Source: a virus. Taken from it: a stretch of 64,000 nucleotides of DNA. The stretch spans positions 1 to 64,000 of the IMG/VR virus record IMGVR_UViG_3300033121_002167. One strand, written 5' to 3'. Under the pieces are notes generated by a model, which had not been told where the DNA came from, did not search any database, and saw only the letters and a program-made list of their open reading frames with translations. A program made the translations under genes and the position numbers. How positions within the stretch are numbered: position 1 is the first letter of the stretch; every line of letters starts with the position of its first letter. This document shows, piece by piece, positions 1,429-49,180 of this stretch.

Positions 1429-2070
1429 TAAACGAGTTACAATGAAACCATGAGTGACCCGTGATCTCTCGGGCAGAGGGGCAATAATCTCAGGAGAGTC
1501 TGGGGCTTAAACCACCCGAGCCGCCATGCGCGCGTCCCTGTTCGACTCAGGGTTGCTCCACAGGTTGATGAGCCCAGCTCATCACTCCACCGGGTGACGC
1601 GCATGCGTCAATCCACAAGTTTCCACACATGCTTTTCATCCCCACAACTGACGTCCGAGCTGGCGCACTCATCCAGTGGGCCTCTTCGCTGTACGTTGTC
1701 TTGTGCATCAGTAAAGTTCCCAATCCCACGCTGAGGGACGACTTCTGGTACAAAGTCACGATGCTTGAGCATTCCTGGCACTCCCCCATGAGCCGGCTCA
1801 ACTGGATCGAAGTCCAGGAGAACCACCTGTGGCCTGTGTGCGACGACATTGAGAAGTTCAAGCGTGAGTTCGGTGATTCAGTCACTCCCTTCATACTCGC
1901 ACAATCGTTCCAAGGTTGACGACGCCAGTGACAGTCATGGTGATCGGCATCTGGGCTCACGAGAGCAACGTTTATTGGAGGAGGGTCAGATTCTTCTGCG
2001 CGGAAGAGCAGAGATTCTGGGATACTGTCAGTGAAGTCGACGAGCAGTACTACTACGCAACGATGCTATT

Positions 2071-11953: not shown

Positions 11954-12186
11954 GCACAGAGTTCAAGACTGGTGATCTAGTGAAGTCCGTCGAGGACGAG
12001 GTGGCGACGTACAAGATTAGCCATGATCCACGCATCGGTCCAATTCAGTTTGAACGTTACGTAGGGGTGAGCGGTTTTCATGTCTTCTTGGGATACATCG
12101 ACGGGAGCAAAAATAACGGTTACTTTCTTAACGCTCGCGATGGTCGAATCTACATCTGCTTCAGGGGAAACTTTAGGCTAGCATGA
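11950..12186 (+). CDS. GDL-family small protein (array member)
   Basis: 'FKTGDLVKS','HVFLGYI'. Confidence 0.5.
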   Translation: MSTEFKTGDLVKSVEDEVATYKISHDPRIGPIQFERYVGVSGFHVFLGYIDGSKNNGYFLNARDGRIYICFRGNFRLA

Positions 12187-12401
12187 AATCAGGCGACCTA
12201 GTGATCACTTGCGCGAATTCTACATACATCAAAGAGTTTGCTCTCTACGACCCTCGATCAGAAGAACTCCTGTGTTGGCAGGGCAGCAACGTGTTGTTCA
12301 TCTATTTGGGTCCTCATCGATCTAAGATCATGAGCTACTACGTGCGTTACGATGGTTTGATCTGTGCCGCCCATTGTCGCAATTTTGCGAAGCTACAATG
12401 A
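12183..12401 (+). CDS. GDL-family small protein (array member)
   Basis: 'MKSGDLVIT','LFIYLGP'. Confidence 0.5.
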   Translation: MKSGDLVITCANSTYIKEFALYDPRSEELLCWQGSNVLFIYLGPHRSKIMSYYVRYDGLICAAHCRNFAKLQ

Positions 12402-12646
12402 AGATAGGAACGTTGCTGAAGTTGAAGGAAGGCACAGTGCGTTACTGCGTATGCTGGTCGCCTGCTCCACGGGACAACGGCACGTGGTACTGGATGTACG
12501 CTAATGATGTGCGCATGGAAGATGAATTCATTGTGTTCCTTGGACATCACGAAGGCGACACCCTGTCAAAGAGCGTCGGTTGCTTCTTGTCTGTGTCGCA
12601 AGGAATCATCTGGCTTTCAAAGCACAATTTCGTCGAGGTTAAATGA
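12398..12646 (+). CDS. GDL-family small protein (array member; internal start of ORF 12374..12646)
   Basis: 'MKIGTLLKL','FIVFLGH'. Confidence 0.45.
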   Translation: MKIGTLLKLKEGTVRYCVCWSPAPRDNGTWYWMYANDVRMEDEFIVFLGHHEGDTLSKSVGCFLSVSQGIIWLSKHNFVEVK

Positions 12647-12885
12647 TAGCTGTCGGTGATCTTCTTGTTCTGAAATCCAGAAGTGAAAACTTTGCGCCTG
12701 GTTGGGATTCTTCTCTCAGTGAAAGCTGCTGGATGTCACCGGACGACGTGTTCATCTTTCTCGGCGTTGCAGAGAAGTGGACAGATCAGGCAGGTTCGAG
12801 ATGGTATGGAATCGTCTTGCGAGCTAGAGATGAAAAAGTGCTAGTGTTCCCTGATTACTGCTTTGAACCATGTCACCCCAACTGA
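12643..12885 (+). CDS. GDL-family small protein (array member)
   Basis: 'AVGDLLVL','VFIFLGV'. Confidence 0.5.
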   Translation: MIAVGDLLVLKSRSENFAPGWDSSLSESCWMSPDDVFIFLGVAEKWTDQAGSRWYGIVLRARDEKVLVFPDYCFEPCHPN

Positions 12886-13106
12886 TACAACATCGCTGGA
12901 CGCAGATCGGATACCACGTGGAATTTGAGCATGCTTACGAGATCCCACATCGTGCCATGCCCTGGCTTCCTGGTGATGTTGTCAGACCGGCGTGGGATGA
13001 CTACGATCGCAAACTAAACGATTTTGCTCCGGAGCCAGCTGGCATCGTTATCAACTATGATCGAACGACAAAAGACATGCTGATCCTGTGGAGCGATGCA
13101 CCGTGA
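12870..13106 (+). CDS. divergent GDL-family member
   Basis: 'WLPGDVVRP','MLILWSD'. Confidence 0.4.
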   Translation: MSPQLIQHRWTQIGYHVEFEHAYEIPHRAMPWLPGDVVRPAWDDYDRKLNDFAPEPAGIVINYDRTTKDMLILWSDAP

Positions 13107-13333
13107 AGAGCGTGAAAAAGCTGAAGATAGGATCATTGTTGATCCCAACCTCTTCATTTCATTGGTTGTACTCAACAAATCCGATTCACTCGCAGGTGAT
13201 CACAGCTCACGGTCGACCACTGTACGTGTACCTCGGAAACATGGTTGACCGTGATGATGCTCCGGCTCTGTACATTCTTACGCCAGATTGTGAAATCTAC
13301 TTGACCGATGCTGAGAACGTTGAAGAGCTATGA
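13088..13333 (+). CDS. GDL-family small protein (array member)
   Basis: 'LKIGSLLIP','LYVYLGN','YILTPDCEIYL'. Confidence 0.5.
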   Translation: MERCTVKSVKKLKIGSLLIPTSSFHWLYSTNPIHSQVITAHGRPLYVYLGNMVDRDDAPALYILTPDCEIYLTDAENVEEL

Positions 13334-13578
13334 AATCAGGTGACCTGGTCGCATCGCGGTTCGCAGCAACAACGTGCTTCGAAGTGCACCCTGAATTCGG
13401 TCTGCTGATCAGAACGATAGCTAGCGATGAAATTTGCACGTTCATCTGCAAGCTCTCCCGTGATGACCAAAGAAGGGTGCATCCATCGTTGGGCACGTAC
13501 ACCGCTGCGACGATGATGATCATGCGTGCTGATTGCAGCCTCGTGTACGTCGACAAAAGGATGCTATCAAAGCTATGA
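13330..13578 (+). CDS. GDL-family small protein (array member)
   Basis: 'MKSGDLVAS'. Confidence 0.5.
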   Translation: MKSGDLVASRFAATTCFEVHPEFGLLIRTIASDEICTFICKLSRDDQRRVHPSLGTYTAATMMIMRADCSLVYVDKRMLSKL

Positions 13579-13823
13579 TCGATCTAGATGATCTACTTCT
13601 TGGAACGTTGCTTCGACCGAATGCTGACGCTTCTGGATCTCGTCACTGGATTTATAAGTGGAACGTTTCTAAGACGTACGAAGCGTTTTATGAAGCACCA
13701 GGACCGGTGTATGCGTACATGGGCATGATTCCCGTTGAGGGTGAAACAACTGCTTATGCTTTGAGCTCTAAGGACGGTGCTTTGTACGAAATATGCACGA
13801 GAGAATTTGAGGTCATCCCGTGA
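13575..13823 (+). CDS. GDL-family small protein (array member; internal start of ORF 13533..13823)
   Basis: 'LDDLLLGTLLRP','VYAYMGM'. Confidence 0.4.
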   Translation: MIDLDDLLLGTLLRPNADASGSRHWIYKWNVSKTYEAFYEAPGPVYAYMGMIPVEGETTAYALSSKDGALYEICTREFEVIP

Positions 13824-37945: not shown

Positions 37946-38275
37946 TCATCCCTCCAGTGCAGCGGCTCCAGCAGCTGCGGCATTGTAGAACCTGACATCG
38001 ACATTGTCTGATGCCTTGAAGAGAAACCACTGGTTGAGCGTCTCGTCCCAAGCGTGGATCGTTCCATCTTCATCGATCTTGTGGATCTCGCAAGATGAAG
38101 TGTGAGGACGAGCATGGCGCAACCGAGTCACCAAGATCTTGCTACCAACTGGTGCTAGCAGCACGCCGTCGGCGATCGCAGGCACTGTCTTTGGATCGAT
38201 CTTCACTCTCTTCTTTCGTAGAGCCTTCGGCGCTTTCTCTTTAACGCGCTCAGCGATCTTCTTTGCATTGCTCAT
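37946..38275 (-). CDS. hypothetical small basic protein
   Basis: ORF only. Confidence 0.35.
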   Translation of the reverse strand: MSNAKKIAERVKEKAPKALRKKRVKIDPKTVPAIADGVLLAPVGSKILVTRLRHARPHTSSCEIHKIDEDGTIHAWDETLNQWFLFKASDNVDVRFYNAAAAGAAALEG

Positions 38276-38696
38276 GTTTCTTTATCCAGTCGTAGTATAT
38301 GCCCAATGCACCGTCTGACGGGCGGTAGCTACCCACATCACATTGGAAGAACATCTTCCATGATCTCCAACCGTACTCGCCGATACCGGGCAGCTCCCGG
38401 GCATCTGACCAAGATTTGCTCACGTAAGCCTTTGTCATTGACCTGATCGTGGCTTCGCGACGATTCTTGAATCCAAGGGACCGGATCAAGTCAGCGACTT
38501 CAGCTGGAGAGCTCTCCAAGTACTTCTCAGGTGTTGACCAACGAGACATGAATTCAGGTAGGATCTTTTCCACCTGCGTTCTCTTCGTCCGGTTCAGCAT
38601 GATGCAGCTGACGAGGACGAGCCATTCATTGGGCCATAGAGATTCTTGTATGAGACTGTGAGGACTTGCTAGCGGTATCATACCACTTGCCAACAT
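38250..38696 (-). CDS. HhH-GPD DNA glycosylase, MBD4-like
   Basis: 'LVSCIMLNRT' ~ MBD4 'LIATIFLNRT'; 'LPGIGEYGWRSWKMF' ~ 'LHGIGKYGNDSYRIF'. Confidence 0.7.
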   Translation of the reverse strand: MLASGMIPLASPHSLIQESLWPNEWLVLVSCIMLNRTKRTQVEKILPEFMSRWSTPEKYLESSPAEVADLIRSLGFKNRREATIRSMTKAYVSKSWSDARELPGIGEYGWRSWKMFFQCDVGSYRPSDGALGIYYDWIKKHEQCKEDR

Positions 38697-38720
38697 TGTA
38701 ATTCGTCTAGCTGGGCAAGT

Positions 38721-39395
38721 TCATCTGCCGTACTTCTTGTCAAAGTACGTGTTACCAAGTTGGTACAGAACATTTTCTAGCGATGATTGCTTCACGTCGT
38801 GCTTTGCCAGCTGCTGAGCAACTTCACCATGCCTCTGGATCAAGCTTGATTTTGCCGCGCTTTGTCCTGGCCCGTCGTAAGAGTAGTTCAATACCTTGTT
38901 TGGATCTTTCACAAGCTCGCAGTCATCGCATTCTTCTGGTGTCTTTGGATCATCACGATCATCAAACGGTTTCTTGTCAACATCACTGCGCTTCGAAGAG
39001 TAATATTGCCACAACTTCTCGGCAGAAGAATTTGTCGATACCCTATCTGGCATCAAGCCACCGTCGCCATCGCTCATGACAATATCGTACATGAGCGGAC
39101 CGTAGCCTTTCGAAGCAGCAGATCGATGAACTTCGATAGCGTCATTGCACTCGTCAGAGTGTGGGATGGCTTCGATGAAACCGTAGATAAATTCATCGAG
39201 AGGTTTGGAGAATCGCATGCTCCAGAAACCCGGTTCTTGCATGACAGACGCTAGAGTCTTGGGCTCGTAAAGAACGTAGTAAATCTTACCTTCTCGCTGT
39301 CCCCTATAAAGAGCTAGCCCAGCATCTATAGCTTGATCTCCGCCCACTGCTGCTTCAATGAGGTGTGATATGTACGACTTCAAGTGTTGCTTCAT
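38721..39395 (-). CDS. hypothetical protein
   Basis: 224-aa ORF. Confidence 0.4.
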   Translation of the reverse strand: MKQHLKSYISHLIEAAVGGDQAIDAGLALYRGQREGKIYYVLYEPKTLASVMQEPGFWSMRFSKPLDEFIYGFIEAIPHSDECNDAIEVHRSAASKGYGPLMYDIVMSDGDGGLMPDRVSTNSSAEKLWQYYSSKRSDVDKKPFDDRDDPKTPEECDDCELVKDPNKVLNYSYDGPGQSAAKSSLIQRHGEVAQQLAKHDVKQSSLENVLYQLGNTYFDKKYGR

Positions 39396-39703
39396 AGGAT
39401 TCCCACCCTCTTGAACAGCTTTCGATTGTAGTCGCTGAAAGATCCTTGCAGGAGAACAGCGGGTTCAACCCACTTCACCACACCAGATTCATCAGTGTCA
39501 ACGTTACCCATGACTGAGCAAGAGTAAGTCGTCACGAAGTAACCAGCATCATCTTTCTGCGAGAACACTTTTGTTAGATTGACAGCAGTGTAACCGGTCT
39601 CTTCTTCGAGCTCTCTTGCAGCGGCTTCAACCTCAACCTCACCAGGATCCACTTTCCCGTGGGAAATTGTTGCAACTATATTCTTCTTGATCAAGCTTAC
39701 CAC
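39392..39703 (-). CDS. Nudix hydrolase fragment (C-terminal two-thirds, retains Nudix box)
   Basis: 'GKVDPGEVEVEAAARELEEETGY'; paralogous to 40467..41039 but lacks N-terminal ~85 aa; 5' end abuts GIY-YIG gene. Confidence 0.45.
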   Translation of the reverse strand: MVSLIKKNIVATISHGKVDPGEVEVEAAARELEEETGYTAVNLTKVFSQKDDAGYFVTTYSCSVMGNVDTDESGVVKWVEPAVLLQGSFSDYNRKLFKRVGIL

Positions 39704-39715
39704 CTATATAATTTC

Positions 39716-40543
39716 ATGTTTGTGTACAAAATAACTTGCATCATAAGTAACCGAATTTACGTTGGAAAAACAATTCATAGCATAGAGTCTAGATTCAATC
39801 GTCACATAAAACAATCAAAAAATCCTAGTACAAAATTTCATCATGAAATTGCAAAATTTGGAAAAGAAAATTTCGAAATTGTTCTACTACAAGAATGCAA
39901 TTCAGTTAAAGAGCTCAATCAGGCAGAAAGAGATTGGATTGAAAAACTAAACAGTACTGATCCTATCGTTGGTCTTAATTCAACATGCGGTGGTCAGTGT
40001 GGTTTGATGACATGTGAAACAAAAATCAAAATATCAAACGCACTAAAAAATAGAAAACTTTCGAACGAACATCGATCAAAGATATCTGCAATAATGAAAA
40101 CCAAGCACGGTGCATTGAACAATTTTTACGGACGTCATCATGACGATAACACTAAAAAATCAATTTCAAATTCAATGAAAGGTGAGCGCGGTCCGTGCTA
40201 TGGAAGAACGGGCTCAAAACATCCGATGTTTGGAAAAACACATAGCGATGAATCAAAAAAGAAAATGTCAGACATTAAGTCTGGTAAGAAACTTACAGAC
40301 AAGCACTACAAAGCCGTTAAAGCCTGGCATGCGAAAAGAAAAGAAATAATCTCAACCCGTGATGATCAGATTTTTGATCTTATTTTCAACAAAGGCTTTT
40401 CGAAGAAGAACGCGGCAGAGGCTCTAGGCGTGGGTATCAATCTCATTTACGGAGCAATGCATCGATTCAAAGTATCGAAATCTTCTGAAAGAGAAGTTGA
40501 TTGTAACGATAAAATGGAGATTGATTCGGATCGATCAAACTAG
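39716..40543 (+). CDS. GIY-YIG homing endonuclease (I-TevI-like, NUMOD3 repeats + C-terminal HTH)
   Basis: 'FVYKITCIISNRIYVGKT...RFNRH'; repeats 'HRSKISAIMK','TKKSISNSMKG','SKKKMSDIKSG'; AT-rich island (track ORF 39659..40543). Confidence 0.75.
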   Translation: MFVYKITCIISNRIYVGKTIHSIESRFNRHIKQSKNPSTKFHHEIAKFGKENFEIVLLQECNSVKELNQAERDWIEKLNSTDPIVGLNSTCGGQCGLMTCETKIKISNALKNRKLSNEHRSKISAIMKTKHGALNNFYGRHHDDNTKKSISNSMKGERGPCYGRTGSKHPMFGKTHSDESKKKMSDIKSGKKLTDKHYKAVKAWHAKRKEIISTRDDQIFDLIFNKGFSKKNAAEALGVGINLIYGAMHRFKVSKSSEREVDCNDKMEIDSDRSN

Positions 40544-41039
40544 AAGGATTTACCCACCTGATTACGCCACTTTCATTTGTATGAATTGTACCGGATACGT
40601 TTCCGGAAAACGTTGTTGTCATAAATCCATGAGAATCTCTCATTGAAAATATTTCAACTAGATCAGTTACATCAAGTCCAGTTTCTTCTTTCAACTCTCT
40701 TCTAGCAGCGTCAATATCTTTTTCACCAACATCAACATGTCCACCAGGCATACCAAGCGCATTTGGATCATCTTTCCTAGAGACTGCCAAGATCTTTCCG
40801 TTTGGGTTCCTAACAAGAACGCATGCAGCTCGCGGGGCATTCAAAGCTGCGAGCGTCTCGTCTTCTTCGTCATTTGCCAACGAACCACCCACTTCGACGT
40901 TTGTTATCGGCGGTCGAGGATCTGTCAACATCTCACGGATGAGCTGCTTCAGAAGCTTAACTTCTTTGGTTCTGGAAGTGGACATGATTCGATCTGATCG
41001 CAGCTCGTTATGTTCTTGACGCAAGACGGAGCGAGCCAA
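40467..41039 (-). CDS. Nudix hydrolase
   Basis: Nudix box 'GGHVDVGEKDIDAARRELKEETGL'; N-terminal 'KLLKQLIREML' propeptide-like motif. Confidence 0.7.
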   Translation of the reverse strand: MARSVLRQEHNELRSDRIMSTSRTKEVKLLKQLIREMLTDPRPPITNVEVGGSLANDEEDETLAALNAPRAACVLVRNPNGKILAVSRKDDPNALGMPGGHVDVGEKDIDAARRELKEETGLDVTDLVEIFSMRDSHGFMTTTFSGNVSGTIHTNESGVIRWVNPSSLIDPNQSPFYRYNQLLFQKISIL

Positions 41040-41323
41040 ACGCCTGCTGCTTGCGTATCACGGCAGAACACGCTGCACGTTGCCACGCAGTGGTTCGCTA
41101 CGCAACCATGACCCAAGTCACAATCACCAGTGTCAGCGCACAACCTCTTCATGTCGATATCACGGCCCTCTTCGCAACCCAAGTTGTTGAGACGATCACA
41201 TGCAGCCTGGCAGTCACCCGTATCGGTCACAACTGGCGGTTGAGGTGTTACGTTGGACCCACGAGGGCACCCAGAAATAATCAATGTAATGAGAAGGATA
41301 GATACTGCGCCCAATTTTTTCAT
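40949..41323 (-). CDS. Cys-rich putative lipoprotein
   Basis: signal peptide + lipobox 'LIISGC'; 16 Cys in mature region. Confidence 0.5.
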   Translation of the reverse strand: MKKLGAVSILLITLIISGCPRGSNVTPQPPVVTDTGDCQAACDRLNNLGCEEGRDIDMKRLCADTGDCDLGHGCVANHCVATCSVFCRDTQAAGVWLAPSCVKNITSCDQIESCPLPEPKKLSF

Positions 41324-41330
41324 TATTCTC

Positions 41331-41678
41331 TCAAATTTCTCTCAAGTACCCAAACTTAGCATTGAAGAGCCCAACAAGCGCTGAATCTGTTTCCTTGAAA
41401 TCATTGTTGTGCTTGCGGAATAGCTTCGCGTACTTTGAAGATGCATAATCGATGATCTCACGTCTGATATTATCAGGCAGAGGTTCATCATTGATCTCTT
41501 CTGTCTTTCTGATCCAGAAAACGGCAGCAGTGCGACCATTTGATGCTAGCGACGGCGCCATGTGCCTCTTTAGCCGGGCGATGAACTTTGTGTCAAGCTT
41601 GAGCTCAGCAATGATAGTTGAGACGTACTCTTTCAGCAGCTGTTGATCGCTCATGTACCCTCCAAAAACGGTACCCAA
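41331..41678 (-). CDS. hypothetical protein
   Basis: ORF only. Confidence 0.35.
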   Translation of the reverse strand: MGTVFGGYMSDQQLLKEYVSTIIAELKLDTKFIARLKRHMAPSLASNGRTAAVFWIRKTEEINDEPLPDNIRREIIDYASSKYAKLFRKHNNDFKETDSALVGLFNAKFGYLREI

Positions 41679-43633
41679 AAGCTGTTTGCAGAGCTTTCGT
41701 CTAGGTACTTAAACGGCACCCAAGCGTAACCATCATCTCCCCACCAAGTTCCCCAAGAGTTGCGAACCAACCACAGCTCTCTTCCAAGATCGTAGCCTAC
41801 GATCACTTGGCAGTGACCTCCAGCGCCGGCCCTAACGGACTTTGGCATCGCAACGGGTGGACCGCCGCGGTACGCCATGTAATCTTTATCGACAGTCATG
41901 CCAAAGACGATCGGATGGCTTGCTTGCAGCGCAGAGATGATGTAGTTTTTCTGCGCTTGACCAGATCCACCGATAGAATAGTAGCTGTCGATTTTGTTGA
42001 CGTAAGCGTCTCTGTAAGAACCCCAAGACGGTCGAATGAAGACCTTGCTGGTGTCATAAGGCCACTTTTCTTCTGCACAAGTTCCCAATGATGACAGCGT
42101 TCCGAACGCCATGTGAATGTAAGCACCCTCATCGCGATCTTGCATTCGTGACATCAAACGAGCATTGTAGTAGACGAACATCCTAGACAAGTCTACGAAA
42201 GGTTTGCCGTTGCGGATCTGAAGAAACTCGAGAGCCCCAACGACACCGTTGCCGACGCAGTTATGAACAAAAACACCGCTAGCTAGAGCGAAATTATGCT
42301 GTTCATTATCAACCGTTAGACAGTACACATCTATTTTTTCATCTAGATGTTCAATGCTGACTATTTTGTGATTGTAATTTTCAGCAGCTTCTTTCAGCTC
42401 ATTCAGAGAACTGAAGTATTTTTCTATTGACTTGAATGTCGAAAAATTTGGAATCCCAGATGATCTTTTAGTTTTTTCCCACGCCTCTTGCGTGAGCTCA
42501 CTATTCTCTGTGATGACACGATTAGCATACTTGATCAATTTCAATCTTCCAGATTCAGAACCAATTGATCGCATTGATTCTCGTACAACTGACATAAATC
42601 GATCATCACTTTTTATTCTCTTGCTTATCTGTTTTCCAATCAGTTTCTTTTGTTCTTGCGTTCTATTTGAAAGCGTTTCTTTCAACGACAAACGTGCCTT
42701 TGCTCTTGATTCAGAGCTATGACCTTTCATGAAAAACTGTTGACGCCAACTTTCCATCTTGTTTTCATCATTCATTCGATTGATGTGCGCTTGTGTACCT
42801 CCTTTACCCTGGGCACCAGCATTCCATAGTGGATTATCTGCGTACTGTTTTAGTATCGTTCTACGCGAATCTTCGCTTTGTTTTTTCGAACCATGATACC
42901 AAGTTCCACCATGAGGCGTTTGTTGTGAATGATACAAAAAGTGCTCTTGTATACCCATGAACTTTAGATTCTCAGGATCATTGTTCTTCTTGTTGAAATC
43001 AATGTGATGAACACACTTAACATTTTCATCAATATGCTGCAACTGTTCTGAATGAACGTTGTACGCAACCATGTTGTGAGTTTTTACGTATGATGACTTA
43101 AAGTTGTCAAAAATCATCTGATACCCGTTCTTATCGTATTTTACATACAAAGGCATCAATGACATTGATGAAGTCAATGATTTAGCTTCACAATAAGTTC
43201 CATCTCTTAGAAGCCAACGATGATCTGGTGTGCAAATCACCACATCGCCAGAATCTAGTGTGACTTTAATGACCTCTTTTTTCAAACCAGTCAATTTTGC
43301 CGTTGCTTTGCCAGGTACGATTTTTCCTTCTGGTGTGCAAGAATAAATCCAAAATGGTTTGTTTGATTCGTGAAGTTCTTTCAATGATCGTTTTTCACCA
43401 TTGAGCAAACGAATAAGTGTATCACCAGAAAAGCAGCTTCCGATCTGACCTTGATCCTCCACGGGGGAGCACCACTGGCGCAGATCTAGGACGCCGTCGA
43501 CCTCTTGCGGAGCGCTAGCTGGTGATGCAGCTGCGAACTTAGAGATATTATCCGCAAAGACGTAGTTCTTGCTTGCGTCATGATCTGGATCTTCGTGGTC
43601 GGCTTTCCAGCCGCCTAGCTTTGGTACGTACAT
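41651..43633 (-). CDS. papain-like (C1) cysteine peptidase interrupted by an intein
   Basis: exteins: 'QGQIGS|CVGNGVVGALEF' (papain 'QGSCGSCWAF..AVVTIEG'), 'GGHCQVIVGYD' (His), 'NSWGTWWGDDGY' (Asn-Ser-Trp). Confidence 0.75.
   Translation of the reverse strand: MYVPKLGGWKADHEDPDHDASKNYVFADNISKFAAASPASAPQEVDGVLDLRQWCSPVEDQGQIGSCFSGDTLIRLLNGEKRSLKELHESNKPFWIYSCTPEGKIVPGKATAKLTGLKKEVIKVTLDSGDVVICTPDHRWLLRDGTYCEAKSLTSSMSLMPLYVKYDKNGYQMIFDNFKSSYVKTHNMVAYNVHSEQLQHIDENVKCVHHIDFNKKNNDPENLKFMGIQEHFLYHSQQTPHGGTWYHGSKKQSEDSRRTILKQYADNPLWNAGAQGKGGTQAHINRMNDENKMESWRQQFFMKGHSSESRAKARLSLKETLSNRTQEQKKLIGKQISKRIKSDDRFMSVVRESMRSIGSESGRLKLIKYANRVITENSELTQEAWEKTKRSSGIPNFSTFKSIEKYFSSLNELKEAAENYNHKIVSIEHLDEKIDVYCLTVDNEQHNFALASGVFVHNCVGNGVVGALEFLQIRNGKPFVDLSRMFVYYNARLMSRMQDRDEGAYIHMAFGTLSSLGTCAEEKWPYDTSKVFIRPSWGSYRDAYVNKIDSYYSIGGSGQAQKNYIISALQASHPIVFGMTVDKDYMAYRGGPPVAMPKSVRAGAGGHCQVIVGYDLGRELWLVRNSWGTWWGDDGYAWVPFKYLDESSANSFWVPFLEGT
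42260..43435 (-). mobile_element. intein (Hint domain with HNH homing-endonuclease insert), 392 aa
   Basis: block A 'CFSGDTLIRL', block B 'TPDHRW', HNH 'VHHIDFNKKNNDPENL', block F 'VYCLTVDNEQHNFALASG', block G 'VFVHN|C'; AT-rich vs host gene. Confidence 0.7.
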
Positions 43634-44445
43634 AATAGCTTCTTCCCTGTTAGCATTGAGATCAAGAACTTGACAGCGTTAAACAAGATCGCCAAGAAAC
43701 CTTTTGCATCTGGTGTTGGGGGAGGTGCAGGAGGCGGTTCAGGCACAATTATATCAACTGACGGTTGAGTTTTTACTTCAGGCTCTGGCTCTTCGATGAC
43801 AACTGGGATCAGAGGATGATCTGGAAGTTTGTCAGGCCAGTGAAGCGTCATAGCGGGGTACGTGTCTGGTTCTTCAAGAACTCGAGCAGCGTTGGTGAAC
43901 AAGATTACATTTGCCTCGTTGCGAGGCTTCAAGCCGGGATTTCCTGCTTCATTCATCTTGCACGTTGCCGCTGCAGTCAAGAAGTCTTTCTTCTTCACAG
44001 CGGCTTCGAAGCGTGGAAAGTTGAAGCCAGATCCCATAGCCCAAGACATGCTCATGATCCCAAGCTGAGCATCTGCGGGCCATGAATCAAACTCAGGGAA
44101 GCGCTTCTTGACGTGAGCTTCCATCTCTAGGAGCCTGCGCCTGACCAGGTCGTCGCAAGATTTCTGAGACAGCTTTAGAGCCGTGATAGCCCTGAACGAA
44201 GGAGCACCCTTCAGCGCGAGATCTGTCCTAGCTTTAACGTTGTGCCACTCTGTAGCAATTTCACCCGGCGGTGCCAGCCCGCCAGACTTCCTTTCAAATG
44301 GCAACGAAGTAGCCATAGAGATCGGATCGATCAGGTTTCCCCGAGCGATCGTCACCAGGCCTTTGACGTCTAGGTACATGTGCTCAACGACGCCTTCGAA
44401 GCGGCCCGTGAAGCTGCTGAAAGCATCTATGACTGATTGATGCAT
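43615..44445 (-). CDS. GH24 lysozyme (T4 lysozyme-like) with Pro-rich linker and C-terminal hydrophobic segment
   Basis: 'FEGVVEHMYLDVKGLVTIARGNLI' ~ T4L '[23 protein letters not shown]' (catalytic E, D, T). Confidence 0.7.
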   Translation of the reverse strand: MHQSVIDAFSSFTGRFEGVVEHMYLDVKGLVTIARGNLIDPISMATSLPFERKSGGLAPPGEIATEWHNVKARTDLALKGAPSFRAITALKLSQKSCDDLVRRRLLEMEAHVKKRFPEFDSWPADAQLGIMSMSWAMGSGFNFPRFEAAVKKKDFLTAAATCKMNEAGNPGLKPRNEANVILFTNAARVLEEPDTYPAMTLHWPDKLPDHPLIPVVIEEPEPEVKTQPSVDIIVPEPPPAPPPTPDAKGFLAILFNAVKFLISMLTGKKLLCTYQS

Positions 44446-44461
44446 GTACTCTAAGTATTGA

Positions 44462-44926
44462 TCAGCTCTTCCCAGTTTCTTTCAACTTCTTGAGCAGACC
44501 CTCTACGTCAACAAGCTGTCCAGCATGGCGCCTTGCATCTACCTCAAAAGGTGATGACCAGTAAGGATCTGATCCAGGGCAGCCTACTCTGATTGCTACG
44601 TAGCACAGTGCGTACATGATCGGCTGGAAGATTCCGAGCCGCATGACTTGATCTACGTGCTTCTGCTCGTGGATGAGAACCATCGGACGATCAACGGGTG
44701 AAACTTTAAGCACCACCACGTTGCCGATCGCTTGCCCGCCCCACTTCTTCCACAACGCCATCAACCAACTTGGTGATGTGGGTTTGACAGTCCAAACAAG
44801 AGCGTCTCCTTCGACGCCGTGCCATTTGTAAAACCCCGCAGCGGTCATCAGGGCAACGTACAACAACCCAAACAACGTCACTGGCGCGGCCCAGGCGTAA
44901 CCCAAAAACTTCAGAAACTTGGACAT
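44462..44926 (-). CDS. membrane protein with HExxH motif (possible zinc metallopeptidase-like)
   Basis: N-terminal TM helix; 'LIHEQKHVDQ'. Confidence 0.3.
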   Translation of the reverse strand: MSKFLKFLGYAWAAPVTLFGLLYVALMTAAGFYKWHGVEGDALVWTVKPTSPSWLMALWKKWGGQAIGNVVVLKVSPVDRPMVLIHEQKHVDQVMRLGIFQPIMYALCYVAIRVGCPGSDPYWSSPFEVDARRHAGQLVDVEGLLKKLKETGKS

Positions 44927-44984
44927 GTCAATCTCTCCTTGATCAGCTACATGCTGATAGGTAAGAGATGACGCCGAAGTTACG

Positions 44985-46178
44985 TCAGAATTCGCCGCGA
45001 GTTCCGTGCTTCGCGTAGTAATCAGCTTCGCGCCGAGCAGAAGACTTCTTGTGCTTCGACCAAGACTTGATCTCTTCTGGCGTTGGCTTCACTGCGTCTG
45101 CAAACATGTAGTCAGCGCGTTGAGCTCGGCCGTCAGTTGTCCGGCACGTGACGTAGCTACCACCAGTCGACGGCGTATCTTCAAACGAAGCGATCTGAAC
45201 GACAGCACCGCCTGGCAACTTCACCCAGTCACCGACGTTCCAGCCATCAAATGATGTCATTCCCTCGGTGAGAATCGTTCTGATCATCGACTTGAGCTCG
45301 CGAAGCTTGATCTTCATAGCGAGTAAGTATTCACCCCAAAGGTGATCAAACGTCGCAGTGAACTTTCCCCAAGCTTCATCTTTCAGAAGCGACTTAAAGC
45401 CGTACTTCTCGAACGTAGAGCGGACAGGTGCCCAATCTTTGGTCGGCTGCGAAGACGTCATACCGTGCGCCTCTTCGTCAGACCACGTGGTGAACTTGAT
45501 GAGCGAATAATTCTTTCGAAAGGCTTCTTTGTTAGCAGGATCGTTGAAGAACTCCTTCAACGCATCCGGGTCGTCCATCAGCGCCGTGGCAGCACCATCC
45601 GTGATAATCTTTGGGATGTTGTCAGTCGGATCGCCACGAAGAGCCTTCCATGTAACGTAATCAGCGGGAGCTTGCTCAACGTACGTCTTCTTCATCGGGT
45701 TATAGATGCTGACGCCCTCAAATTCATCTAGGAGCTGCGTGAAGTCAGAATCGTTCGATACAACTGTCCACTTCACGGCTCGAGTGCCACGCTTGATGAG
45801 GTTGTAGATCGTGTCATCGCACTCGTGGTGAGGATGACGCACGACAGAGAACGGAAAAGAACCTGCCAACAACCCGACTATCTCGTCGACCTGGCTGAAG
45901 AACTTCACCATCTCATCGTGCTCTTTGGTGCCGGCTTCTACGATGCGGTTCGCCTTGTATTGCGGCAAGATATCGTGACGAGCTTGCGGATGGCCTTCAA
46001 GCACGAAATACAAGCGACTGATATCAAGTTTTTCTACTAGTGCTCGTATGTTACGAAAAAAATTAAAAACTACAGGAGCTGGACCAGCTGTCCAGCCAGT
46101 TCTAGACCGGTGCAAAAAATTCATCCCATCTACTAGACAAATATGAGGACGCATAATTCTATTGTTACGTGCTTCCAT
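44985..46178 (-). CDS. 5'-3' exonuclease / flap endonuclease (T4 RNase H / Pol I 5'-exo family)
   Basis: 'ICLVDGMNFLHRS' (cf. Pol I 'LIDGSSLAFRAF'), 'LEGHPQARHDILPQYKANR'; N-terminal ~50 codons unusually AT-rich. Confidence 0.75.
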   Translation of the reverse strand: MEARNNRIMRPHICLVDGMNFLHRSRTGWTAGPAPVVFNFFRNIRALVEKLDISRLYFVLEGHPQARHDILPQYKANRIVEAGTKEHDEMVKFFSQVDEIVGLLAGSFPFSVVRHPHHECDDTIYNLIKRGTRAVKWTVVSNDSDFTQLLDEFEGVSIYNPMKKTYVEQAPADYVTWKALRGDPTDNIPKIITDGAATALMDDPDALKEFFNDPANKEAFRKNYSLIKFTTWSDEEAHGMTSSQPTKDWAPVRSTFEKYGFKSLLKDEAWGKFTATFDHLWGEYLLAMKIKLRELKSMIRTILTEGMTSFDGWNVGDWVKLPGGAVVQIASFEDTPSTGGSYVTCRTTDGRAQRADYMFADAVKPTPEEIKSWSKHKKSSARREADYYAKHGTRGEF

Positions 46179-46816
46179 TGCTTGTTAAGCTTAATCCGAT
46201 TTACTTGAGAACGACTAATATTGAACAGTTTCACAATGTCACAAACTCTAGTTCCAATTGACAATTGATACTTGATTCCCTTAACATCATCTTCAGTCAA
46301 TGAACAATTTGGATTTTTCACTCCAATCCGTAGTTTAGCATGCTCACTAATTTTTTTACGTGCTTGATCAGTAAGATGTGTTCCGAAATTTGGATTTCTA
46401 GCGCCACGCAAACCTTCCCAACCAAGTCTTGCACGAGAAATTGCCTGGCGATGTTCTAGTGACTTAGGTTTTCCGCGGTGTTTATCACTCATTTTCTGAC
46501 GAGTTTCTATCGAAACAACGCAACCCGTAGATCCTTCTCCTCCACGCGTCAGATTATAACCTCTATCGATGTTAAACGAATCATAATGTGATATCCAATA
46601 AATTTCACGATCATCACACTCATGATCATCACACTCTTCTAGAATTCGAAACTCGAAATTTTCATGACCATATTTTCGGATGGAACAGTAAAGAGGTCGA
46701 AGATCACCTTTCTTGGCAGAATACAAATGTCCTGCTTTTCTATTGGAAAAATTTTTCGTTTGCCCAACATATACTTTCCCGTTGATTAGATTCTGAATCA
46801 GATAAACATATCTCAT
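46133..46816 (-). CDS. GIY-YIG homing endonuclease (Seg-like) with C-terminal HTH
   Basis: 'VYLIQNLINGKVYVGQT...NRKAGH'; AT-rich. Confidence 0.75.
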   Translation of the reverse strand: MRYVYLIQNLINGKVYVGQTKNFSNRKAGHLYSAKKGDLRPLYCSIRKYGHENFEFRILEECDDHECDDREIYWISHYDSFNIDRGYNLTRGGEGSTGCVVSIETRQKMSDKHRGKPKSLEHRQAISRARLGWEGLRGARNPNFGTHLTDQARKKISEHAKLRIGVKNPNCSLTEDDVKGIKYQLSIGTRVCDIVKLFNISRSQVNRIKLNKQWKHVTIELCVLIFV

Positions 46817-47005
46817 TCAATTAAGTATATCGAACCGTGTTGGAGGGGCAAAGAATAGCGTCTCCACGAGAGACCTGATGTTCCTCATGAAGTTGAAGAC
46901 GACGGGCGCAGGACCGCCTGTCCATCCACTTCGGGCTCGATGCAGAAAATTCATGCCGTCGCACAGAACCACGTGAGGTTGTAGCATCTTCTTAGATTGT
47001 ACCAT
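46817..47005 (-). pseudogene. displaced N-terminal fragment (62 aa) of the 5'-3' exonuclease gene
   Basis: 'LCDGMNFLHRARSGWTGGPAPVVFNFMRNIRSLVE' ~ residues 13-50 of 44985..46178 protein but with GC-rich codons. Confidence 0.55.
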
Positions 47006-48014
47006 GACGTAACGTTTCGTTGCACTTCTTCAAGTACCATGCACGCGCAGCAGCTTGCAGCTGACCACGAACGTCGTGCCACTCCAACCCGCTGGCTTCA
47101 AGCTCAGCTTGTGCTTCCTTGAAGACGTCCTTGCACACCCAAGCCAAGAACGGTCCCGTGAGTCGCGGATGATATTCACCACCGAGCGTGGCGACACCTT
47201 GCTCTAGGCGAGCTTCAGACAGAACGAGAGCGACAAACTCAGCTGCAGATGCGGCAACTTCCGGATCAACTTGCGCTGGTTTTCCGTGCGTCAAGATCTT
47301 GTGAGCTTCACCCTTTGCCTTGAAAGCCAAGTTCGTGAACGTCTTCACCGTCGTTGGCAGTGGGTAGTAAACGAGACCTTCACCGACGCCCTCAACTTGG
47401 AACGTGGACTTCACCCAAGGATCGCATCTCTCAACTTCAGCAACGTCGCTGTTTATCTTGTCAACGATGGGTTGCAGATCTTCGACGCGGTGCAGCATGT
47501 TAACGTTGAACGACTTCGAGTGCCAAGGAAGCACGTACGCATCATGGACACCCGCGACCAGCGGCTCGAGCTCGTCAGGTTCAACGATCAGCTTCGACTC
47601 TTCGTTGTCAAATGCGTCTAGGACCGCAGCGGCAAAGACAGCAAAGAACTTCTTGCTGACTTGCGTCAATGCTGTTCCCTTGTTGATGCCAGGTCCGCAC
47701 CATTCACCGAAGATCACTTTGTCGACTGCCACGCCTGTGTCTAGAAACGATTGCGATTCTCTGTGAGCCCATGCTGCCAACCCAGCAAAATCGTTGCCAG
47801 GAGCGATGAACTGCTCGCGGGTCTGGACTGTGATGCCCTTTCGCCTGACTTGGATCCCTGCATTGGCACCATGAAGCTTCACCTTGGGCCTGAAGGTGAC
47901 GTTACCGTCACCCACGATGTGGGGGTAGTTCCTGATGTTCTTCCGAAGCGTGTGGAAGTTGACTATCTCTGGCCATCTGATGAACGACATCTGCTTTGAA
48001 TCCTTCCTGTGCAT
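46992..48014 (-). CDS. RNA ligase, Rnl2 family
   Basis: motif I 'KLHGANAG' (T4 Rnl2 'KIHGTNFS'); 'IFGEWCGPGINK' (T4 Rnl2 'VFGEFAGPGIQK'); 340 aa. Confidence 0.8.
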   Translation of the reverse strand: MHRKDSKQMSFIRWPEIVNFHTLRKNIRNYPHIVGDGNVTFRPKVKLHGANAGIQVRRKGITVQTREQFIAPGNDFAGLAAWAHRESQSFLDTGVAVDKVIFGEWCGPGINKGTALTQVSKKFFAVFAAAVLDAFDNEESKLIVEPDELEPLVAGVHDAYVLPWHSKSFNVNMLHRVEDLQPIVDKINSDVAEVERCDPWVKSTFQVEGVGEGLVYYPLPTTVKTFTNLAFKAKGEAHKILTHGKPAQVDPEVAASAAEFVALVLSEARLEQGVATLGGEYHPRLTGPFLAWVCKDVFKEAQAELEASGLEWHDVRGQLQAAARAWYLKKCNETLRHGTI

Positions 48015-49180
48015 GGAACGACGAGCCAGCAGTACACGCTGTCCCAGTCAATGTTAGCCCACGTTTTACTGATAAATGATACCACAGTACTAACCATTTG
48101 TTTATCTCGAATTAATTCGTGGGCTTCTCGTGATAACTCCGAGCGGTCTAAAGCGACCGACGGAGGATTCCCGTCCACACCGCACGAGAAGCTGACGATC
48201 TTGGTCTCAGTGGGATCGACCGCGACTTGCAACCAATACTTTGACACGTCGATGGCGTGGATGCCCGGCGGCGTGGGAACATTATCTCTGACCTTAAATG
48301 ACCACGTTCGAACTGCAGAACCATCAGCACGGCGCTTGAACTGCACCTTGCTAACGCAGTAGTAGCTAAGAAGATGGTACGCGATGACTCGAGCTGCATC
48401 TTCACGGAGATCTTTGTCATCAAGCGCAGAACGTTGCAACCTGAGATTATAGTTGCGGTGCTGCAAGTCCCACTTCACGTACTCTTCCACAGATTTGATC
48501 GTGGTCTTCAGGTACGCAGGAAAGTTACCTTGCGTATAGCGCAACTTTGCTTCACGCTCAGCACGCTGCAGGCGAGATTCACTCTCGGCACGCTTGATTG
48601 GAATTGCAAATGAATTGAACGTATCAAGCAGGTGCTTGATCTCACCCTGCGCAGTTGCTGTCAACCATTTCGGGTAATTGCGCTTGTCTTCCCGATCGTA
48701 CAGGTGCAAAGCGCCATCGATGGTTGCTGTGATATCCTTAAGCGTCAGCTTCTTGGGTGCCTTCGCTGCCTTCACCGCGGCTTCTTTGCCTGCGGTGAAG
48801 TTGTCTGGGAGCTCGTACTCAATGTTGTTGACGTCTTCGAGCTTTGCCCAGAAGCGAACTTTCGACTTTTCGCCGACAACTTTGAACGTGATCGAATCGT
48901 AGTTGTCAGATCCTTCCTTGGCCTTGTTCGCAGTTCGAACGTAAACTCGATCGATCTCCAACTTCGTGCCTTTCGGCAGCATCACAGACTCGTGCTTGTA
49001 ATCGAGCGGCCAGCCCTTTCCGGATTTGGAACGATTGTGCCAGTTGCTTTTCACATCCTCGTAGACTTTGGGTGCCAAGAGCTTCAGGCACGTGTCGTTC
49101 CTGTCTTCGAGGTAGAGCGAGAAGCTCCAGTCAGCAGCGAGGACGATCTGGTAACCAACTGCAGGTACGAAAAATTTCAC
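47963..49180 (-). CDS. hypothetical protein (operon with Rnl2)
   Basis: 405-aa ORF, overlaps neighbours. Confidence 0.4.
   Translation of the reverse strand: MKFFVPAVGYQIVLAADWSFSLYLEDRNDTCLKLLAPKVYEDVKSNWHNRSKSGKGWPLDYKHESVMLPKGTKLEIDRVYVRTANKAKEGSDNYDSITFKVVGEKSKVRFWAKLEDVNNIEYELPDNFTAGKEAAVKAAKAPKKLTLKDITATIDGALHLYDREDKRNYPKWLTATAQGEIKHLLDTFNSFAIPIKRAESESRLQRAEREAKLRYTQGNFPAYLKTTIKSVEEYVKWDLQHRNYNLRLQRSALDDKDLREDAARVIAYHLLSYYCVSKVQFKRRADGSAVRTWSFKVRDNVPTPPGIHAIDVSKYWLQVAVDPTETKIVSFSCGVDGNPPSVALDRSELSREAHELIRDKQMVSTVVSFISKTWANIDWDSVYCWLVVPCTGRIQSRCRSSDGQR

Follow-up and report, generated by a model that had tools for sequence, protein, structure and literature searches.

A class-1 intein with a nested HNH domain lies directly before the predicted catalytic cysteine of a viral papain-family peptidase

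Inteins that interrupt proteases are known from the chloroplast ClpP of Chlamydomonas eugametos and from archaeal or nucleocytoplasmic large DNA virus (NCLDV) Lon/LonB proteins (PMC4760082, PMC10710043), with the LonB inteins tabulated among those of P-loop NTPases and with intein placement at a catalytic nucleophile called rare in a large survey (PMC4760082). Here we describe an insert in a C1A (papain-family) cysteine peptidase gene within a 64,000-nucleotide (nt) stretch of viral DNA (IMG/VR record IMGVR_UViG_3300033121_002167, positions 1 to 64,000; hereafter the window), which is very probably a canonical class-1 intein with a nested HNH endonuclease that reached the xylellain-like peptidase gene of a huge phage through homing. 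The likeness to ClpP and Lon/LonB is that an intein interrupts a protease such that maturation of the protease depends on protein splicing, whereas ClpP and Lon/LonB are serine proteases that depend on ATP and have unrelated folds. No report of an intein in a cysteine peptidase, of the papain family or otherwise, turned up in the literature that we searched, which leaves most subscription journals outside it, such that this absence is not proof. Such hosts indeed appear to be uncommon, as had been remarked in an earlier reading of the same DNA made without database searches (the sequence-only reading), given that they amount to a few dozen clusters among billions of proteins.

The insert occupies positions 42260..43435 (1176 nt, 392 codons), and checking of its codons revealed first residues CFSGDTLI and last residues GVFVHN, followed by Cys459 of the precursor, such that the host protein is interrupted as ...DQGQIGS↓CVGNGVVGALEF... 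(arrows mark junctions here and below). The sequence-only reading had placed a 392-amino-acid (aa) intein at exactly these coordinates, ending VFVHN↓C and splitting the host after QGQIGS, and both its strings and its split point proved right to the codon. The open frame did not arise by chance, because stops are expected at 7.5% of codons at the insert's own base composition (probability of 392 open codons, 6.6e-14), 0 of 20000 shuffles of the insert stayed open, and the remaining five frames hold 17-39 stops. Base composition shifts sharply and exactly at the boundaries, with a GC content of 37.2% in the insert against 55.6% in the N-extein, 51.1% in the C-extein and 49.2% across the window, which is what one would see had foreign low-GC DNA been joined into a phage contig during assembly. 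Such an artifact is hardly credible, however, because an independent assembly (L008, run SRR12901019; 99.86% identical to the window) carries the same intein and encodes an identical 660-aa protein (P0121). The insert is moreover in frame to the codon with canonical splice junctions on both sides, more than 20 homologous intein-peptidase fusions come from unrelated samples, and all mobile endonuclease genes in the window are, like the intein, low in GC (35-38%, vs 49% overall).

Curated profiles, conserved residues and a structural model all identified this insert as an intein. The Pfam model Intein_splicing (PF14890) scored 68.5 bits (cutoff 35.8) in a match that runs from one end of the insert to the other and treats the endonuclease as an internal gap, and the NCBIfam models intein_Nterm (TIGR01445; 38.7 vs cutoff 24.5) and intein_Cterm (22.4 vs cutoff 15.6) likewise exceeded their cutoffs. 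In an alignment of the window intein with 63 related inteins (64 in total), Thr69 and His72 of the block B motif TPDH were invariant in 64/64, and Cys1, the block F residue D369 and Asn392 were each present in at least 90%, with blocks F and G of the window intein reading DVYCLTV...HNFAL...GVFVH391-N392↓C459. An AlphaFold2 model built on this alignment adopted a Hint fold with a mean predicted local distance difference test score (pLDDT) of 86.6 and values of 92-98 in both splicing halves, and a Foldseek search of the PDB with this model returned inteins as all of its best 22 matches (RecA, DnaE, DnaB, NrdJ-1, PolII, CDC21; probability 1.00, E down to 1.3e-6), with Hedgehog and bacterial intein-like (BIL) domains ranking far below. 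Hint domains of the BIL or Hedgehog type are without the canonical His-Asn and +1 nucleophile, usually occupy variable host positions and carry no homing endonuclease; we rejected an autoprocessing domain of that kind because the HN↓C junction, a conserved active-site position in the host and a nested HNH region are all present. Every sequence and structural test that we applied for a class-1 intein thus came out in its favor, and self-splicing is predicted.

The HNH motif nested in the Hint fold reads VHHIDFNKKNNDPENL...H...H, and six of its residues (H143, H144, N152, N156, H165 and H169) are invariant in 64/64 related inteins, while two PHROG families of HNH endonucleases matched the intein at 1.2e-10 and 1.9e-7. 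Strands 140-144 and 157-161 and helix 162-172 of the AlphaFold2 model form the strand-strand-helix arrangement expected for HNH and are followed by a long helical region (aa 173-354), which is presumably DNA-binding; the mini-intein P0134 is without this region, and the related P0370 has lost part of it. The HNH and block F motifs, both named in the sequence-only reading, were therefore recovered here, and a Hint fold, the lack of which that reading had counted toward refutation, was predicted.

In silico removal of the intein yields a 268-aa protein that matches Pfam Peptidase_C1 (PF00112) at 70.5 bits (cutoff 20.7; E = 2.8e-19; profile positions 6-202) and xylellain (PDB 3OIS) at E = 1e-29 over residues 57-262, and in which splicing would create the junction ...IGS-CVGN... 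within the spanning peptide ...QGQIGSCVGNGVVGALEFLQIR. Alignment placed DQGQIGSC of this protein against DQGRIGSC of xylellain and QGQCGSCW of procerain B, with GGH at the catalytic His and RNSWG at the Asn motif. Q61, C459, H607 and N625 were invariant across 17 aligned homologues, and we take them to be the equivalents of papain Gln19, Cys25, His159 and Asn175, such that by alignment the intein sits between Ser24 and Cys25 in papain numbering. A dual role of Cys459, as both the +1 splice nucleophile and the Cys25-equivalent protease nucleophile, is supported because the GSC of this protein aligns with the catalytic GSC and because C459 is invariant; the sequence-only reading had anticipated both this coincidence and the papain-like nature of the host. 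The unspliced precursor should not be able to act as a protease, because 392 residues part Ser24 from Cys25. The spliced host falls within peptidase family C1 (clan CA) by the sequence tests used, with peptidase activity predicted. No hydrophobic segment was found in the peptidase, and an NCBIfam search of the extein and neighboring proteins gave no match. Coordinates of the precursor, its parts and its nearest neighbors are collected in Table 1.

Table 1. Parts of the intein-containing peptidase gene and adjoining genes, in window coordinates.
Feature	Position	Strand	Details
Precursor open reading frame (ORF)	41651..43633	minus	660 aa; N-extein, intein and C-extein of C1A (papain-family) cysteine peptidase
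N-extein, aa 1-66	43436..43633	minus	C-terminal end ...DQGQIGS; Gln61, putative oxyanion-hole Gln19 equivalent; Ser66, -1 residue
Intein, class 1, 392 aa (precursor aa 67-458)	42260..43435	minus	Cys1...His391-Asn392, +1 Cys; nested HNH homing endonuclease (predicted)
N-terminal Hint half, intein aa 1-118	43082..43435	minus	Block A Cys1 codon 43433-43435; Thr69 43229-43231; His72 43220-43222
HNH endonuclease core, intein aa 119-172	42920..43081	minus	VHHIDFNKKNNDPENLKFMGIQEHFLYH
Helical Lys/Ser/Arg-rich endonuclease region, intein aa 173-354	42374..42919	minus	All-helical model, pLDDT 50-95
C-terminal Hint half, intein aa 355-392	42260..42373	minus	Block F DVYCLTVDNEQHNFAL; block G GVFVHN; His391 42263-42265; Asn392 42260-42262
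C-extein, aa 459-660 plus stop codon	41651..42259	minus	Cys459 42257-42259; His607 41813-41815; Asn625 41759-41761
T4-lysozyme-fold (GH24-like) protein, 276 aa	43615..44445	minus	Pro-rich linker; C-terminal hydrophobic helix aa 247-265
HExxH protein, 154 aa	44462..44926	minus	N-terminal hydrophobic segment; HEQKH motif; kept in L009 and L011
Local gene order along transcription			FEN, HExxH membrane protein, lysozyme, peptidase, 115-aa protein, Cys-rich lipoprotein (lipobox ISGC), NUDIX

We propose that the 660-aa precursor would be translated in a proteolytically inert form, with the peptidase nucleophile displaced by 392 residues. By established intein chemistry, an N-to-S acyl shift would occur at intein Cys1, the resulting thioester would be attacked by Cys459 (the +1 residue and future catalytic Cys) in a trans-thioesterification, and Asn392 would cyclize with the assistance of His391 to release the intein, after which an S-to-N shift would rebuild ...QGQIGS-CVGNG... 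and thereby a 268-aa active peptidase. The freed intein would then, as in established homing biology, use its HNH nuclease to cut intein-less alleles (such as those of L001-L006, described below) during co-infection, and recombinational repair would copy the intein into the cut allele. A splicing-dependent, zymogen-like delay on the protease would be a side effect of these steps.

Comparison with related contigs revealed natural empty sites for this intein. The spliced sequence has its best homologue in P0001, a natural intein-less protein of 268 aa with 266/268 identical residues. At least six contigs (L001-L006) encode P0001, and these share synteny with the window (93-95% nt identity) and lack exactly the 1176 nt. 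In blastn, window 46019..43433 corresponds to L001 3662..6248 and window 42260..40678 to L001 6245..7827, with the 4-nt overlap of the two blocks on L001 representing the shared TGC(+1) at both intein ends. When the 60-nt flanks of the window were joined (120 nt), they aligned without gaps to all six empty sites at 117/120 identical positions, the three differences being one nonsynonymous change (Asp60 to Ala) at -19/-20 and a synonymous one at each of +9 and +12. At the latter two, the intein-bearing allele has GGC AAC and 6/6 empty alleles have GGA AAT (window 42248..42251 region); the L001 empty site as a whole is GGTCAGATCGGAAGC↓TGCGTCGGAAATGGT, against the variant GGCAAC at the window's own junction. 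These GGA AAT to GGC AAC and Asp/Ala differences could be marks of target-site immunity or of co-conversion by the HNH nuclease. Because a 99%-identical intein-less peptidase exists in sister genomes, the intein is most likely a selfish element.

The closeness of the junction to the empty sites also bears on whether the intein no longer splices, in which case the peptidase gene would be inactivated, pseudogene-like and open only through its recent origin. Decay would not show yet if the insertion is as recent as these junctions make it look, and the peptidase may be non-essential, as it is absent or located elsewhere in many phages and matched by only 9 phage records. We nevertheless regard a dead insertion as very unlikely, given that Cys1, TxxH, the block F Asp, His-Asn and the +1 Cys are all intact and that a 392-codon frame stays open in AT-rich DNA. 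The same architecture also persists in lineages whose inteins are 34-65% identical to that of the window, with splice residues and the extein triad kept, which requires long-term selection for splicing.

Several points weigh against the interpretation of a working intein acquired by homing. No co-conversion tract is evident around the insertion site, where identity is flat at 94-97% in 100-nt bins on both sides. The extein differs between window and L001 by 34 synonymous and 2 nonsynonymous codons, which in itself speaks for the interpretation; the purifying selection acting on it could, however, largely predate the insertion, and it therefore gives no proof that the interrupted gene still works. 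The Pfam model HNH_3 fell just below its gathering cutoff (20.1 vs 24.8 bits), and splicing, HNH cleavage and peptidase activity are all predicted.

Acquisition by homing can be further assessed from the spread of related inteins. When the intein by itself served as query, 13 further protein clusters proved to have a related intein (34-65% identity) in a C1 peptidase, all at the same site, G(S/A)↓C...HN↓C(T/V/A). Seven more clusters came from a set of 1.84 billion representative proteins, where a profile search yielded P0361-P0365, P0370 (which lacks its HNH region through deletion) and, in truncated form, P0372 and P0385. A related intein thus occupies the Cys25 site in at least 20 other protein clusters, of which P0134 carries a 137-aa mini-intein without HNH; among the best 120 extein homologues listed, none had an intein domain or a length able to hold one. 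Between the window and P0123, the inteins are 55% identical and the exteins 31%. Intein identity likewise exceeds extein identity across deep host divergence, and the two are uncorrelated over 78 pairs (Spearman 0.10, p = 0.37); with the divergence of intein and extein thus uncoupled, homing is indicated. These comparisons show the pattern left by horizontal spread through homing with subsequent decay, and P0134 and the HNH-deleted P0370 mark the decay phase of the homing cycle.

The related proteins also revealed further insertion sites within the same peptidase family. P0361 (1052 aa) holds two inteins, one at the Cys25 site and a second directly after the catalytic His (…VVGGH↓C…HN↓CMV…), with this second intein using the Cys that follows the His and that is also present in the window protein (GGHC). 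The truncated P0494 (440 aa) has an intein at a third site, after NSWGSDWGK↓, such that, taken over the family, every predicted catalytic-triad residue (Cys, His, Asn) has an intein site next to it. The post-His intein of P0361 is nearest to the intein of P0145 (37% identity, 2e-70), and P0145 and P0210 are caspase-like Peptidase_C14 proteins in which a related HNH intein immediately follows the catalytic His-Gly (…SGHG↓C…HN↓S…). This pattern hints that inteins moved ectopically between similar 'GH(G)↓' sequences in two families of cysteine peptidases.

Recurrence at triad residues could also be read as a sign that the intein has been domesticated for regulation, such that conditional splicing (responding to redox, temperature, timing or metal) would cage a potentially toxic or lysis-linked protease until late infection in place of a papain-type prodomain. 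An insertion exactly at the nucleophile means that the precursor must be inactive, three sites in one gene family each lie at a triad residue (before Cys25, after His159 in P0361 and after NSWGxxWG in P0494), the N-terminal extension of the peptidase is short (only ~50 aa) with no I29-type prodomain found by Pfam, and a lysozyme gene lies directly upstream. We consider such domestication unlikely, however, as the 99%-identical intein-less peptidase of sister genomes shows the intein to be dispensable, as its conserved HNH residues, low GC and patchy presence fit a selfish mobile element, and as targeting of active sites is expected from homing to conserved DNA without regulatory selection. Similarly improbable is the more specific proposal of a natural zymogen lock that times a phage cysteine protease beside a lysozyme, in which triad-site recurrence would reflect selection for caging and not only homing, and splicing would possibly be conditional on thiol redox because Cys1 and the +1 catalytic Cys are both needed as free thiols.

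Turning to the neighbors of the peptidase gene, the sequence-only reading had the peptidase followed by a GH24 lysozyme and an HExxH membrane protein and had suggested a virion- or lysis-associated protease. This order holds in plus-strand coordinates and fails in the direction of transcription, where both genes lie upstream because the peptidase gene is on the minus strand; the lysozyme gene overlaps the peptidase start by 19 nt. Its product did prove to be a GH24-like lysozyme by fold. The Pfam model PF00959 stayed below cutoff (18.8 vs 22.3) and a PDB sequence search with this protein gave no match; its identity was settled because the predicted structure (pLDDT 90) and a Foldseek search gave T4 lysozyme as best match, with a template modeling (TM) score of ~0.6 normalized to the target. 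The protein also shows T4 spacing (E-x8-D-x5-T), with D26 invariant and E17 and T32 nearly invariant, and its homologues, some of them fused to peptidoglycan-binding domains, are annotated as GH24 by the Joint Genome Institute (JGI). For the HExxH protein, the earlier description stood as regards the motif and the N-terminal hydrophobic segment only, and its sole match was PHROG 37302, of unknown function.

A conserved lysis cassette was considered and is weakened by comparison across relatives: the 20.8-kb L009 locus (from a 357-kb relative) gave no tblastn match to the lysozyme and keeps the HExxH protein, the 115-aa protein, the lipoprotein and NUDIX, while genes of the peptidase neighborhood are dispersed in L011 and absent in L007. 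A lysis-linked role of the peptidase is possible but weak, and a virion- or lysis-associated role in general is unproven. The lipoprotein of this neighborhood is a Cys-rich 124-aa protein (40949..41323, minus strand) with a signal peptide and the lipobox LIISGC, which is conserved beside the peptidase gene across L001-L006 and L009 and occurs in L011 as well; from these traits it could be a spanin-like or other envelope lipoprotein.

The source genome is inferred to be that of a huge (jumbo-class) phage, because window proteins match huge phages of the LR7565xx series, Burkholderia phage FLC9 and Lak phages best. Protein matches of the C1 peptidase were found in LR756511 (595 kb), FLC9 (322 kb) and Lak phages, and a 711-aa ORF of the window had its best match in Microcystis phage Mel-JY01 (190 kb), followed by LR756500 and LR756508; a nucleotide search of the peptidase gene against 50,697 phage records gave no match. 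An origin from a giant eukaryotic virus, as might be suggested by the UvdE, Fapy glycosylase, NUDIX and vault-like proteins, was rejected given that the best matches are huge phages, that GroEL is nearest to phage and bacterial records, and that the window genes are densely packed and overlapping. The 895-aa vault-like ORF (19824..22511, plus strand) matches eukaryote-type Major Vault Protein domains (MVP_shoulder at 2e-30, Vault_3, Vault and Band_7) and has homologues that are 41-45% identical in the huge phages LR756500, LR756501 and LR756503 (462-735 kb); a vault-like shell protein encoded by huge phages would seem to merit study of its own. The window also encodes a GroEL-type chaperonin (30571..32196, minus strand; Cpn60_TCP1 at 6.5e-65; 44-46% identical to GroEL/GroL in phage and bacterial records) and a tRNA-Leu(TAA) at 1478..1561 (plus strand).

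Other mobile genes occur in the window, among them several free-standing GIY-YIG/NUMOD3 endonuclease genes. Relative to L001-L006, a GIY-YIG/NUMOD3 endonuclease gene is inserted in the FEN (5'-3' exonuclease) gene at 46020..46856 (minus strand; ORFs 46133..46816 and 46817..47005), leaving the native FEN N-terminus as a 62-aa fragment ORF, and this insert carries its own second FEN N-terminus such that a full-length 397-aa FEN ORF (44985..46178) is restored downstream of the endonuclease gene. A second GIY-YIG/NUMOD3 gene separates NUDIX from the gene that comes next and runs on the opposite strand (39659..40761; ORF 39659..40543, plus strand), with ~66 nt of target (L001 7762..7827) matched on either side of it. 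Both L001-L006 and L008 are without this gene, and the intein and this endonuclease gene are thus independently polymorphic, because L008 has the intein without it. Across 38000-48500, no group I intron or other RNA was matched in Rfam at E <= 0.1. Two further endonuclease-like genes are found at 57987..58832 and 62945..63925 (both minus strand), of which one has a PHROG GIY-YIG homing endonuclease as its match (1.7e-33) and the other carries ROS/MucR plus NUMOD3. On L011, an IS200/IS605 pair (Y1 transposase plus OrfB/TnpB; 12052..13645) lies immediately downstream of the intein-containing peptidase gene of P0126.

These observations add a papain-family cysteine protease to the hosts of inteins, with insertion at the catalytic nucleophile itself. 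The C1 peptidase family displays every stage of the homing cycle, from empty sites at 99% protein identity through full HNH inteins to an HNH-deleted form and a mini-intein, together with a two-intein protein and three sites, and thereby offers a compact natural setting in which to study how inteins invade, switch sites ectopically and decay. The understanding of how inteins work is unchanged by the window intein, which is neat and useful to specialists rather than surprising: what is new is the extein family and the insertion sites, and what is known is the mechanism, that of a canonical intein.

Among described systems, the same nested HNH type occurs in the PF14890-group inteins of RtcB, GyrB, dCTP deaminase, gp25-like baseplate and radical-SAM proteins, which share with the window intein the blocks CF-GDT-I-LLNG, FWVYS, GKIVPG, CTPDH-FMLRDG-Y, SLMPLY, NHK-V-I, DVYCLTV and HNFAL-SGVFVHN and differ from it in host protein and insertion site. 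Identity between these inteins and that of the window is 29-33% over the full length, and NF052663 (intein-containing RtcB) aligns at 2e-60. Nearest of the non-C1 relatives are the RtcB inteins, which likewise occupy the position just ahead of a conserved Cys that follows a Gly (YDIG↓C...HN↓CGM). The C1-peptidase inteins group together, at 34-65% identity to the window intein against 33% for the best non-C1 intein that aligned over its full length (RtcB P0136). On the side of the host, xylellain of Xylella fastidiosa is the best solved relative of the spliced extein, a C1A protease that shares DQGxIGSC, GGH and RNSWG and is without an intein, whereas the window protein is phage-encoded. In synthetic biology, intein-caged and split proteases have been engineered such that protease activity appears only after splicing, and these are man-made. 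The intein-caged protease described here and its 137-aa mini-intein relative could supply parts for self-activating proteases, the window element being a natural counterpart of those engineered caged proteases that is placed at the nucleophile itself.

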